15,321 bases of DNA, from IMG/VR virus record IMGVR_UViG_2698536443_000012. One strand, written 5' to 3'. Positions 1,488 to 5,633 of this stretch are shown one piece after another (the stretch's first letter is position 1; every line of letters begins with the position of its first letter). The notes beneath the pieces are model-generated. The model had not been told where the DNA came from. It saw only the letters and a program-made list of their open reading frames with translations, and made no database searches. Both the position numbers and the translations under genes were made by a program. The DNA is from a virus (taxonomy: Duplodnaviria; Heunggongvirae; Uroviricota; Caudoviricetes).

Positions 1488-1545
1488 AAAAAGGGCGGCA
1501 GAGCAGTCACGGAGTAAAACTGATACCGCCAAACGTCACCAGAAA
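1488..1545 (-). ncRNA. dicF: DicF small RNA (ftsZ-targeting antisense sRNA)
   Basis: Reverse complement of 1488-1545 reads TTTCTGGTGACGTTTGGCGGTATCAGTTTTACTCCGTGACTGCTCTGCCGCCCTTTTT, which matches the DicF sequence as I recall it and ends in a GC stem plus U-run. Exact processed ends cannot be set from sequence. Confidence 0.7.
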
Positions 1546-2519: not shown

Positions 2520-2738
2520 TTAACGTGGGTATGTAATCATTCTGGCAATGCTTAATGCCGCTGCTTTTTCCAGATTGGTGATATCCTGCTCCAGAGCGGA
2601 CAGATTTTCAGCCTGCTTAGCCCTGGCTTCATTGGCCCATTTCAGGTCCTGCACCGCCTTAATTTTCTGGTGCATCCACTCATAAAGTTCATCATCGGTA
2701 TAGTCTGGCGCGATGATGACGGGGTCTCGTTTCTGCAT
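2520..2738 (-). CDS. Small hypothetical protein (72 aa), YdfC-like by size and position
   Basis: ATG at 2738 with AAGGAG RBS about 6 nt upstream. Lies in the DicA-repressed leftward operon. The YdfC assignment rests on length and synteny only. Confidence 0.5.
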   Translation of the reverse strand: MQKRDPVIIAPDYTDDELYEWMHQKIKAVQDLKWANEARAKQAENLSALEQDITNLEKAAALSIARMITYPR

Positions 2739-2810
2739 GTCGGCTCCTTGTGGTTAGCGTTGCCTGCTTTTTAACCACGTCAGGCGAGGTGGTATCCTCT
2801 GAGGGGTCTG

Positions 2811-3167
2811 TTACTCGAGAGGAAATTGGTTATGAATACAATCAAGTTTTCTTGCCCAGAATGTGGTGGCTAAGTCTTTGACACATCCTTTAAGCCGCAG
2901 GGCTCTGACAGTTTCGCGGGAGCCATCTGCAAAAATTGTGGTCACCTTGTAACTGAAGATGAGTCCTCGCAGTTCGATGACGAAATCGTTGACAATATCT
3001 TCGGTGCACTCACCAGAGACTTTCTGAAGTAAAGGCGCATACCGCTTAGTTACCGCTCTGATAACTCTTACCTGTCCGGCAATGGCGCTGATATCAATAT
3101 AAAGCGCCATCGCTGTTTCTTTGCTGATCCCTGGACGCCTTCCATTCTGATGTTTGACTTCGCCCAC
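2811..3167 (-). CDS. Hypothetical protein (118 aa), first ORF of the leftward DicA-controlled operon
   Basis: GTG start at 3167 with GAGGA RBS about 7 nt upstream. About 75 nt downstream of a minus-strand promoter-like TTGACC-17-CTAAAT. No recognisable domain; could instead be two smaller genes (ydfA/ydfB-like). Confidence 0.4.
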   Translation of the reverse strand: MGEVKHQNGRRPGISKETAMALYIDISAIAGQVRVIRAVTKRYAPLLQKVSGECTEDIVNDFVIELRGLIFSYKVTTIFADGSRETVRALRLKGCVKDLATTFWARKLDCIHNQFPLE

Positions 3168-3239
3168 TGAGAAATCCTCTGCTTCCCCTTAACGCCGGGT
3201 AGCGGAACTGTTTGCTGAGAACACCGTGCGGTGTCTTGA

Positions 3240-3300
3240 TGAGTAGAATTTAGAATAGCCTAAGAGTTATGGTCAAGCTTTTTGTGTAGAAAAACCTAAG
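3240..3300 (-). promoter_or_regulatory. Candidate DicA-repressed leftward promoter (dicBp-like) with operator half-sites
   Basis: On the minus strand, -35 TTGACC (plus 3271-3276) and -10 CTAAAT (plus 3248-3253) with 17-bp spacer. Minus-strand CTTAGGTTTTTCTACA (plus 3285-3300) nearly repeats CTTAGGTTTCTCTACG in the dicA-dicC intergenic region. TTAG-N6-CTAA at 3250-3263. Confidence 0.4.
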
Positions 3301-3374: not shown

Positions 3375-3782
3375 TTATTTATTTGCGCTTCTTTTGCGAG
3401 CTTTGAGTAGTTCTTCAAAAAGTTTGTTGAAATTCTCAACTCGAGCACGCATCTCTGACAACAGAGCCTTTTGCTCTGACTCAGGCAGTGCGTCGAACAG
3501 TTGAAGCAACTCTTTTTGATCTTCTGTCAGATTGACTGGCTGATTATCTGGGATCGGTTCGCCTGGTTGCTTATCTTCATCTCCAAAAAGAAGCCAAGTC
3601 GGCGAGCACTGAAGCGCCTGGCTCAGTGCGAATAATCTCTTCCCCGCTGGCTGTGTTTCATCTCTTTCCCATTGAGAAATTGTTACGTGAGCCACTTTGA
3701 CCAGCTTACCTAATGCGGCCTGAGACAGTTTTAATTTTTTTCGCCTGTATAAGAGGCGAGCACCGAAGGTTTCGTTTTTCAT
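3375..3782 (-). CDS. dicA: Prophage repressor DicA (XRE-family HTH, cI-like)
   Basis: 135-aa ORF with HTH motif LSQAALGKLVKVAHVTISQWERDETQP and C-terminal ...ALPESEQ...EMRARVENFNKLFEELLKAR closely resembling E. coli DicA as I recall it. Divergent from dicC. Confidence 0.85.
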   Translation of the reverse strand: MKNETFGARLLYRRKKLKLSQAALGKLVKVAHVTISQWERDETQPAGKRLFALSQALQCSPTWLLFGDEDKQPGEPIPDNQPVNLTEDQKELLQLFDALPESEQKALLSEMRARVENFNKLFEELLKARKRSANK

Positions 3783-3850
3783 ATTAGGTAATTCTAATTT
3801 TTCTTGGCTTAGGTTTCTCTACGATCTAGTTTCCTTAGGAAAATCTAAGG
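3783..3850. promoter_or_regulatory. dicA-dicC intergenic operator/promoter region (three TTAGG-type sites)
   Basis: ATTAGGTAATTCTAAT (3783-3798), GCTTAGGTTTCTCTACG (about 3808-3825) and CCTTAGGAAAATCTAAGG (3833-3850). All share TTAGG/CTAA inverted half-sites and lie between divergent repressor and cro-like genes. Confidence 0.55.
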
Positions 3851-3858
3851 GGTTCGAT

Positions 3859-4086
3859 ATGTTGAAAATTGATGCTATAGCGTTTTTTGGCAGCAAAACA
3901 AAGCTTGCCAATGTCGCAGGAGTTAGGCTGGCAAGCGTTGCTGCATGGGGGGAACTGGTTCCTGAAGGTCGCGCGATGCGCCTGCAAGAGGCATCCGGCG
4001 GGGAACTTCAGTACGACCCCAAAGTTTATGACGAATATCGTAAGGCAAAGCGGGCGGGGCGGTTGAACAATGAAAATCACCACTGA
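3859..4086 (+). CDS. dicC: Cro-like regulator DicC
   Basis: 75-aa ORF MLKIDAIAFFGSKTKLANVAGVRLASVAAW...GRAMRLQEASGGELQYDPKVY, matching my memory of DicC. Divergent from dicA at the head of the rightward operon. Confidence 0.8.
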   Translation: MLKIDAIAFFGSKTKLANVAGVRLASVAAWGELVPEGRAMRLQEASGGELQYDPKVYDEYRKAKRAGRLNNENHH

Positions 4087-4621
4087 ACAGGTTTGTGAGG
4101 CTCTGGATACCTGGGTATGCCGACCAGGAATGACACAGGAGCAGGCGACGATATTAATCACGGAAGCATTCTGGGCTCTGAAAGAACGCCCGAACATCGA
4201 TGTTCAACGCGTCACGTTTAATGATGGCGAGGTTGATCAACGGGCGCTGGGCGTTAACCGGGTGAAGATATTCGAACGCTGGAAAGCTATCGACACCAGA
4301 GATAAGCGTGACAAATTCACGGCGCTGATTCCGGCAATTATGGAGGCTATCCGGATCAGCGATTTCAGATTGTATTGTGAAATTACTGACGGAAAAAGCA
4401 TTACGTACATGATCGCCGGGTTAAACAAAGAATATGGCGATGTGGTGGAGTCCGGGCTGCTTTTTGCGGATCCAGTTGTTGTGGAACGTGAGACTGACGA
4501 GCTTATAGAAAAAGCTATTGCTTTCAAGCACGCGTATCGTCAGCAATACCAATATTACTTTGCAGATAAACAAATGTCTGCCAGGGGTTCGTATGAGTAT
4601 CGATGCACTACGATGGGCTAA
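4070..4621 (+). CDS. YdaT-like (CII-like) regulatory protein
   Basis: 183-aa ORF overlapping the dicC 3' end by 17 nt. Segment TALIPAIMEAIRISDFRL resembles the YdaT family motif (KLIPAILAILPRELRHRL in Rac YdaT, from memory). Sits in the cII position. Confidence 0.55.
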   Translation: MKITTEQVCEALDTWVCRPGMTQEQATILITEAFWALKERPNIDVQRVTFNDGEVDQRALGVNRVKIFERWKAIDTRDKRDKFTALIPAIMEAIRISDFRLYCEITDGKSITYMIAGLNKEYGDVVESGLLFADPVVVERETDELIEKAIAFKHAYRQQYQYYFADKQMSARGSYEYRCTTMG

Positions 4622-5633
4622 AAAGGTGAAAACCGGCAGTTCATCCAGTAAGTCAGTATTGACCTGGCTTGCTGATATGTGCGGTGCCGATTTGTGTGCA
4701 TACCCGTCTGTATCTGCACTGGCAGAAGTAACGGAACTGAACAAAAAGACTGTGCAGGACAGCTTACGACACCTGATGGAGATTGGGTTAATTGTTGATA
4801 CCGGTGAGAGAAAAGGCAGAACAAAGCAAATTGTGGTGTACCGACTTATCGGTGTAGAAGAAAGTGTTGCCGAGCCTGAATACACCCAAAAACGGGAGTC
4901 TTTAAAGGTGGGTAAAATTGGTGCTGTTAATAAAAACAGTACCGAAAATGGTTATGTTTCAGCACAAAACAGACCCAAAAACAGAACTCTTAGCTGCATG
5001 GAAAATAACCAAAGACACCCAAATTTTCCATCAAAGACACCCAAAAACGGATCACGGAACCCAAAGGAACCCAAAGATCTAAACCCCACACATAACGCAC
5101 GCGAGAGTGCTCCGACCAGTGAGCAGGAAGTTTTGTCGTTACAGGCAGCCCCCCCTGTATTCCTGTATGGCCTGAGCGAACCCATCGGAAAATTCCCGAT
5201 GAGCGATAGCTGGTATCCGTCACGGGATTTTCGACGACGGGCTGCGTTGTGGGGGATGGCTTTGCCGGAGACAGAATTTACACCTGCTGAACTTGCCGCC
5301 TTCCGGGACTACTGGGCAGCGGAGGGGAAAGTGTTTACGCAGATTCAGTGGGAGCAGAAATTCGCCCGTCACGTAAATCACGTCAGGGCGCAGGTTAAAC
5401 CAGTCAGCAAAGGGGTAAACCATGCAGCAGCACCAGGTGGCACCGCATCACGGGCAGTTCAGGAAATTCGGGCAGCACGTGAGCAGTGGGAACGTGAAAA
5501 CGGATTTATCAGCGACGGAAACGGCCTGGAAGCTGTGGGAACTCATGGGGGTGGTTTATTCGAACCGCTGGATCCAGAAGAACGGGGCCGCACCTTCGAA
5601 GCTCTGGATTGCACAGATTGGCGCGATGACTGA
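4593..5633 (+). CDS. Phage replication initiator, lambda O-like (N-terminal winged helix)
   Basis: ATG at 4593 with AGGGG RBS. N-terminus SIDALRWAKK...SVSALAEVTELNKKTVQDSLRHLMEIGLIV is a winged-helix DNA-binding region typical of phage replisome organisers. Iteron-like repeats lie inside the coding region. Followed by a P-like gene. Confidence 0.65.
   Translation: MSIDALRWAKKVKTGSSSSKSVLTWLADMCGADLCAYPSVSALAEVTELNKKTVQDSLRHLMEIGLIVDTGERKGRTKQIVVYRLIGVEESVAEPEYTQKRESLKVGKIGAVNKNSTENGYVSAQNRPKNRTLSCMENNQRHPNFPSKTPKNGSRNPKEPKDLNPTHNARESAPTSEQEVLSLQAAPPVFLYGLSEPIGKFPMSDSWYPSRDFRRRAALWGMALPETEFTPAELAAFRDYWAAEGKVFTQIQWEQKFARHVNHVRAQVKPVSKGVNHAAAPGGTASRAVQEIRAAREQWERENGFISDGNGLEAVGTHGGGLFEPLDPEERGRTFEALDCTDWRDD
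4881..5076. repeat. Iteron-like direct repeats (putative origin) inside the O-like gene
   Basis: Repeated ACCCAAA(AAC) cores: ACACCCAAAAACGG at 4883, AGACCCAAAAACAG at 4971, AGACACCCAAA at 5013 and 5035, and tandem GGAACCCAAA at 5057 and 5067. Confidence 0.5.

Follow-up and report, generated by a model that had tools for sequence, protein, structure and literature searches.

What is encoded at positions 2811-3167 of this piece of phage DNA, and on which of its strands? The window, that is the whole stretch of 15,321 nucleotides (nt) that we analysed (Caudoviricetes, IMG/VR record IMGVR_UViG_2698536443_000012), carries there a minus-strand open reading frame (ORF) of 118 amino acids (aa) and, antisense inside it, a shorter plus-strand frame. 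Our comparisons indicate that this module is probably a new antisense overlapping gene pair of unusually high conservation, coding for proteins on both strands. The product of each strand already belongs to a database family (NF047912 for the plus strand and phrog_21318 for the minus strand) and, as far as sequence comparison can tell, it is their pairing on opposed strands that is new. The features on which the argument rests are the following.

2811-3167, minus strand: ORF in its longest form, 118 aa, with GTG start at 3165-3167 and TAA stop at 2811-2813; an entry in the window's list of ORFs
2811-3110, minus strand: conserved 99-aa core of the minus gene, from ATG 3108-3110; WP_001240336.1 in the PGAP annotation of identical genomes; phrog_21318
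3175-3180, minus strand: Shine-Dalgarno (SD) sequence of the minus gene, AGAGGA, 7 nt upstream of the GTG; kept in E. coli-type haplotypes
2832-3032, plus strand: zinc-ribbon gene of the ECs_2282 family, 66 codons, CPEC...CKNC, stop codon 3030-3032; a pseudogene in the window
2817-2826, plus strand: SD sequence of the plus gene, GAGAGGAAA; a strong SD lies 6-9 nt before the ATG in every lineage, in diverged surroundings
2832-2873, plus strand: micro-ORF MNTIKFSCPECGG, 13 codons followed by TAA, preceded by GAGAGGAAATTGGTT
2871-2873, plus strand: nonsense codon TAA, in place of the GAA (Glu14) of intact alleles; TTC to TTA on the minus strand, Phe99 to Leu
3240-3276, minus strand: early-left (dicB-type) promoter from a sigma-70 promoter scan, with −35 TTGACC at 3276-3271, an 18-nt spacer and −10 TAAATT at 3252-3247

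A probable gene pair: a zinc-ribbon frame inside a minus-strand frame

The plus gene lies wholly inside the minus gene, sharing about 200 bases with it, and the codons of the two are exactly opposed: position 1 of a codon on one strand pairs with position 3 of a codon on the other, and position 2 with position 2.

A sequence-only reading of the window had pointed out a plus-strand micro-ORF with a ribosome-binding site and a CxxC pair. This ORF exists, but at 2832-2873, 13 nt away from the approximate 2845-2886 first given, and it is not an independent gene of 13 codons. Instead, it is the stub of a conserved 66-codon gene of the ECs_2282 family, which had been overlooked because of the in-frame TAA. 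Read through this codon, the plus frame consists of MNTIKFSCPECGG, the stop and VFDTSFKPQGSDSFAGAICKNCGHLVTEDESSQFDDEIVDNIFGALTRDFLK, 66 codons in all, and acquires a second CxxC pair. With the TAA masked, it scored 55.7 bits against NCBIfam NF047912 (cutoff 37), close to the 57.3 bits of an intact relative (L002). All four Cys codons are thus present in the window, but a run of about 66 uninterrupted codons is not: the plus gene is broken there because GAA became TAA at codon 14, and the same base change leaves the minus protein intact, with Phe99 to Leu as its only effect. Relatives at 95-98% identity have GAA at codon 14, and PGAP annotates the plus ORF in them. The family takes its name from ECs_2282 of the Sakai prophage Sp12, where the gene is likewise antisense to a CI...ydfC-dicB operon. 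The window frame shares with this family its length, the CxxC...CxxC pattern, the position between the repressor region and ydfC, and 98% identity to annotated members; it differs in having only 13 translatable codons, and the family description is silent on any ORF on the opposite strand.

We compared the DNA of ten deep lineages (Escherichia, Citrobacter, Klebsiella, Enterobacter, Serratia and metagenomic contigs), at protein identities down to about 45%. Both ORFs are open in the ten lineages, each with its own SD and start codon. Neither is long enough to stand out on that ground; it is their conservation that sets them apart from chance. Searches with the plus protein, which led to Citrobacter, Klebsiella, C. 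freundii, Enterobacter and Serratia, give lineages that are unbiased for the minus frame, and the minus ORF is open in all of these, with 93-174 aa. Likewise, the plus ORF is intact, with four Cys, in all five lineages found through the minus protein (L096, L098, L099, L101 and L102). The sole exception among the loci fetched is the metagenomic contig L100, where indels break both frames; L100 apart, none of the loci fetched in the deeper homologue search had either gene without the other. The Serratia module contains a four-codon in-frame deletion. Each of the two families is very small, the counts being 9 clusters among 1.84 billion representatives and 18 proteins.

Tests of selection on the two frames

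In the opposed register, stops in one frame come from TCA, TTA or CTA codons in the other. Drawing synonymous codons at random with the codon usage of the window left the opposite frame open with a probability of 0.04-0.24 per lineage. For five lineages together the probability was about 1e-5, whichever strand was taken as given, and under an assumed genome-wide codon usage of E. coli it was still about 2e-4. In simulations along the tree, selection on the plus frame only left the minus frame open in all 7 lineages in 0 of 400 runs, and in 2 of 400 at half the estimated neutral divergence, while selection on the minus frame only left the plus frame open in 0 of 400 runs at both divergences.

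Substitutions point to constraint from the plus frame. Divergence at minus-synonymous sites was p=0.374 inside the overlap and p=0.633 in the 27 minus codons outside it (bootstrap 0.001), a significant constraint from the plus frame. Throughout the lineages, each of the four Cys codons is TGY, and the Ala/Thr codons opposed to them therefore always end in A. Additionally, the plus ATG and its strong SD are kept even where the minus ORF has already ended opposite plus codon 2.

For the minus frame, constraint is evident beyond the overlap. Of the six frames, it alone is open in 9/9 lineages over the 27 codons (81 nt) past the plus stop, its pN/pS there is the lowest (0.65, confidence interval 0.51-0.85), and parsimony places 69, 28 and 43 changes at its codon positions 3, 2 and 1, respectively. 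Inside the overlap, Arg88 and Arg91 of the minus protein are held through 2-5 different codons where the plus residue varies (S/P at plus codon 25 and P/S/T at plus codon 22), and the bases TGT GGT CAC, which code for VTT on the minus strand, do not vary among the ten lineages. The minus ORF also has the orientation of the flanking operon, with tight spacing, in both types of context, which are early-left beside the repressor gene or early-right directly after cro; the latter was seen in two lineages.

These results make it unlikely that the plus zinc-ribbon gene alone was ever real and that the minus ORF is an antisense shadow, called where the real gene is broken. As such a shadow would lead one to expect, PGAP does call an intact plus ORF wherever there is one, and in the genomes examined that carry the TAA allele it calls the minus ORF. 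However, every one of the lineages to which the plus protein led has an open minus ORF, for which the analytic chance is 1e-4 to 1e-7, and this ORF runs at least 27 codons past the plus gene with an SD and start codon in each lineage. Moreover, its predicted protein folds with moderate confidence (pLDDT 72.5) and, if it were not a gene, the first 350-430 nt after the mapped transcription start site (TSS) would be non-coding in every context.

Several observations weigh against two genes, and we gather them here. The lineages, about ten, are not fully independent. The directly opposed antisense register is known for long 'shadow' ORFs and is prone to staying open. Plus-synonymous sites in the overlap diverge by 0.548, compared with 0.633 for the neutral proxy, a reduction that is not significant (bootstrap 0.16), so that selection at the amino-acid level is only weakly shown for the minus protein's C-terminal two thirds; in addition, the omega of the minus frame equals the null expectation under plus-only selection. 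OLGenie-style ratios (dNN/dSN and dNN/dNS, 0.21 for the plus and 0.40 for the minus frame) seemed to reveal purifying selection on both frames, and were dropped because simulated selection on the other strand alone yields the same values. The case for the minus C-terminal two thirds is thus made mainly by the integrity of the ORF rather than by substitution rates. Lastly, E. coli contains two independent nonsense alleles of the plus frame and none of the minus frame. The exact TAA-bearing 57-mer occurs in 516 of 5426 complete E. coli genomes, and the IMG/VR locus L085 has the second allele, E44* (GAG to TAG; CTC to CTA on the minus strand, a silent change in a Leu codon). We conclude from these two alleles, one of them in 516 genomes, that the plus gene is dispensable in the hosts that carry them.

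The same alleles, one of which is very common, and the unbroken minus frame would be expected if the minus early gene alone were real and the plus ORF were a shadow, misannotated by NCBIfam and in Sakai, whose Cys pattern is fortuitous. So would the antisense orientation of the plus ORF relative to the operon in every context and the poor model of its protein (pLDDT 58). We nevertheless consider this very improbable: the four Cys, the ATG and the strong SD are kept in ten lineages, even where the SD falls outside the minus ORF, the marked constraint on minus-synonymous sites exists inside the overlap only, simulated minus-only selection never left the plus frame open, and the plus protein resembles a zinc-ribbon region of another phage family (see below). 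Inside the overlap, the plus frame is better supported than the minus frame.

It is extremely improbable that neither ORF is translated and that the region is a structured non-coding leader or an antisense-RNA element, conserved for an RNA or DNA function. A conserved hairpin at 3083-3109, and a small conserved hairpin with a −10-like element upstream of 2832, would be in keeping with it, but hairpins cover a small part of the conserved stretch. Furthermore, substitutions are codon-periodic in both frames, SD sites and start codons accompany two ORFs that have stayed open, the indel in Serratia preserves the reading frame, and an Rfam search found no match in the 2811-3167 region. Both frames of the pair thus appear from these tests to be under selection, the constraint on the minus frame being evident outside the overlap and weak inside it.

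Antisense overlapping genes have been published for E. coli O157:H7 and Pseudomonas, among them ano/ECs2385, asa and olg1/olg2 (PMC5960689, PMC6294744, PMC8850804, PMC9927249), ano being a 186-bp ORF inside the transpeptidase gene ECs2385, and olg1/olg2 evolutionarily novel ORFs inside annotated genes. As proposed for the window, a protein-coding ORF lies there antisense inside another ORF. The window pair differs from them in that both partners are small, the overlap comprises the entire shorter gene, the codons are exactly opposed, and the arrangement is kept across several genera; conversely, the published cases have expression data, whereas the proteins of our pair are known from sequence. 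Proposed overlapping ORFs are generally taxonomically narrow, and most are young. According to PMC9927249, only a small number of antisense overlapping protein-coding genes are well supported in bacteria and phages, and their functionality is debated (PMC7457138). With both frames and both sets of translation signals kept across genera, the window module would be one of the cleaner comparative cases. A full-text search of overlapping-gene papers found no mention of this locus.

Alleles, annotation and the two predicted products

The whole module is present in 937 of the 5426 complete E. coli genomes, each of which annotates one of the two genes. Genomes with the TAA allele are largely O157:H7, O55:H7, O145, O103, O26, O111 and O121, and many of these hosts hold a second copy of the module; the 384-bp module of the window is 100% identical to that of PPompW-type prophages. 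Where a genome is identical to the window, the PGAP call is a hypothetical protein of 99 aa on the minus strand, beginning at ATG 3110; in relatives with the GAA allele it is an 'ECs_2282 family putative zinc-binding protein', and the minus strand is left blank. None of the records examined has both genes annotated together, and a single base flips which gene is called. Pipelines miss embedded antisense ORFs because they allow one gene per locus, and they cannot represent an opposed pair such as this one. The natural alleles disrupt the plus frame with a conservative (E14*/F99L) or silent (E44*) change in the minus protein.

The plus protein resembles the N-terminal zinc-ribbon region of phrog_4852, a separate phage family (E=1e-9). 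Profile searches of the Pfam, NCBIfam and PDB type returned only generic, sub-threshold zinc-ribbon matches for it, and its AlphaFold2 model is poor. We tried and rejected membership in the Lar restriction alleviation family (TIGR03655), also small CxxC...CxxC zinc-ribbon proteins from prophage early regions, with scores of 14.4-15.7 bits against a cutoff of 39.6, and an E value of about 0.01 for phrog_6422 in PHROGs. A profile scan of the genome contigs gave only two zinc-ribbon matches, both unrelated, and a literature search for ECs2282/ECs_2282 found no papers.

The most likely reading of the minus ORF is that of a true early gene. The sequence-only reading had described a 118-aa ORF that starts at GTG behind a good ribosome-binding site, below a promoter; its coordinates proved exact, with AGAGGA 7 nt before the GTG. 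That reading could not place the protein, and our profile searches also gave no Pfam, NCBIfam or PDB sequence-profile match; in PHROGs it matched phrog_21318, a family without an assigned function (E=8.6e-67, residues 20-118 on profile positions 1-99 of 99, a full-length match). Neither of the two options then considered, a novel early gene or a mis-framed region, fits alone, as the ORF belongs to phrog_21318. Homologues of the minus protein are 93-128 aa long, with identities down to 56%, and an AlphaFold2 model from 13 sequences predicts a helix-helix-hairpin-helix fold. The complete overlap with ECs_2282 is not recorded in the family. An N-like antiterminator or a CII-like protein was considered because of the gene's position; Pfam, NCBIfam and PHROGs gave no such match.

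Both phrog_21318 and WP_001240336.1 correspond to the minus ORF from ATG 3110, to which the longest ORF of the window adds 19 N-terminal codons. The 118-aa form is not universal, because nine IMG/VR loci and genomes of the EDL933/TW14359 type have a 1-nt deletion within codons 1-19. In distant homologues the start codon corresponds to ATG 3110 and is preceded by an SD of its own, and in E. coli-type sequences the better SD belongs to the GTG. The protein may therefore start in the window at either GTG 3165-3167 or ATG 3108-3110. The deletion polymorphism lies at about 3156-3164 (gacttcgcc to gactcgcc), also occurs in matches of 700 of 701 bases such as TW14359, and frameshifts the 19-codon extension, leaving the 99-aa form unaffected.

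Operon context and a possible two-strand switch

The operon around the module is, by its gene content, a dicBF-type early-left operon (background in PMC5069750) with a DicA-like repressor. The repressor gene is located at 3375-3782 on the minus strand (135 aa, 63% identical to K-12 DicA), with a P22_Cro-domain gene divergent from it at 3859-4086. To the left of the module are ydfC (2520-2738, minus strand), dicB (further left, annotated in identical genomes) and the DicF RNA (1493-1544, minus strand, 76.7 bits). In EDL933, Cappable-seq assigned gTSS 1848930(-) to EDL933_RS09595 in all 8 culture conditions (PMC10469882, Table S5). This locus is the 99-aa form of the minus ORF (WP_001240336.1), and the TSS corresponds to window position 3240(-), seven bases after the −10. 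DicF, ydfC and the DicA-like repressor bear out the earlier proposal that the ORF is the first gene of a DicA-type operon.

In K-12 Qin, ydfA and ydfB fill the slot that separates the DicA-controlled promoter from ydfC, on the same strand as the operon. The slot of the window holds a different cassette, apparently dual-coding: the 118-aa product gave no BLASTP alignment with K-12 YdfA (DUF1391), YdfB not being directly compared, and K-12-type genomes match the DNA of the flanks only, at 2761-2798 and 3183-3241. The suspicion that the protein differs from those of ydfA/ydfB was thus well founded, and comparative genomics did not uncover the alternative of ydfA/ydfB-like frames accompanied by an unconserved micro-ORF. 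An AACCAC-N10-GTGGT stretch that can form a hairpin is found at 2771-2794, upstream of ydfC; it is part of the operon backbone, and not of the cassette, because it is common to ydfA/ydfB-type genomes without the module (it lies within the 2761-2798 match).

How could two fully overlapping genes be expressed? The minus gene would be the first cistron of the early-left operon, repressed by the DicA-type repressor and transcribed from the TSS at 3240. The plus gene, with its own SD and ATG and pointing toward the early promoter, would code for a 66-aa zinc-ribbon protein with four Cys, and in intact modules both products would be made and functional. We suppose that the plus gene has a promoter of its own, with the element TGnTATCYT, active while the early promoter is repressed. 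Convergent transcription could then make the products mutually exclusive, with the zinc-ribbon protein in the lysogen and the minus protein after derepression. Two elements, one per line, may be relevant here.

2771-2798, plus strand: candidate promoter of the plus gene, TTAACC, 16-nt spacer, TGgTATCCT (extended −10 type)
3083-3109, no strand assigned: conserved hairpin GGCGCT-N13-AGCG(C/T)C, from RNAalifold, 7 pairs, 2 of them compensated

In most lineages, an element resembling TGnTAT(C/T)(C/T)T precedes the plus ATG by 31-38 nt; in the Citrobacter/Klebsiella lineage its place is taken by GGTATATCCT, which lacks the TG. A simple promoter scan did not call the candidate at 2771-2798. The hairpin at 3083-3109 lies 51 nt beyond the plus stop; in the minus gene it spans codons 1-9 of the 99-aa form. 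Its G.U pairs on the plus RNA, found in 7/11 sequences, would become A.C mismatches if it folded in the minus RNA, another compensated variant occurs in Serratia, and it is followed by a T-rich stretch complementary to the minus SD. The hairpin may form a weak 3' end of the plus transcript. A second, small hairpin (2796-2822) abuts the plus SD in every lineage, including the equivalents in L087-L105, and its arms covary (CCTCT/AGAGG in E. coli, CTTGG/CCAAG in the others), with folding energies no better than those of shuffled sequence. It would fall outside the RNA if the TGnTATCYT element is the promoter.

A stronger version of this scheme, which we regard as possible but doubtful, is that temperate enterobacterial phages use the module as a two-strand switch cassette, its halves obligately linked, and that the overlap itself is selected; this would account for the two genes never being found apart. 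In the lysogen, the zinc-ribbon protein would then act in exclusion, defence or regulation, much like the product of a moron, the early protein would appear only after derepression, and convergent transcription plus full antisense complementarity would enforce the either/or choice. Temperate-phage switches offer a parallel, since opposed transcription by the immunity region could make lysogenic and lytic products exclusive: in lambda, OOP RNA opposes cII, which follows directly after cro, the place that the minus gene takes in two of the lineages, and coliphage 186 has face-to-face pR/pL. The antisense partner in those phages is a non-coding RNA or a promoter. Unlike them, the partner in the window module appears, from ORF-level evidence, to encode a conserved protein, and no CII similarity was detected.

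The module sits at the edge of the immunity region in every locus. Between the repressor gene and the module, relatives have HigB/HigA, PaaA2/ParE or an HSDR_N protein, and SieB on the other side (L004 3746-4410, L097 2031-2509, L093 2323-2823 and L092 3930-5084). These accessory genes beside the module suggest that the immunity-region edge is an accessory-gene hotspot.

The EDL933 Cappable-seq data also place the TSS of the repressor gene at window position 3784(-), 2 nt before its ATG, giving an almost leaderless mRNA. The lambda cI mRNA from pRM is likewise almost leaderless. The TSS of the Cro-like gene maps to 3839/3840(+), 19-20 nt before the ATG. Further left, a second plus-strand ORF inside the minus-strand operon (1879-2112, 77 aa, phrog_10348, WP_000920491.1) converges on a 135-aa minus-strand gene (2090-2497, phrog_1363), with a 23-bp overlap at the 3' end; PGAP annotates both, and an EDL933 plus-strand TSS assigned to the 77-aa ORF lies at about window position 1762. 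Directly downstream of DicF, at 1286-1495 on the minus strand, there is an STnc100-like match that is sub-threshold (39.2 bits, gathering score 47). Finally, in O157:H7 PV15-279 (L001 4894-6701) the replication gene after the YdaT-like gene is truncated by IS1203, and its equivalent in the window, at 4518-5633, is an open ORF of 371 aa.

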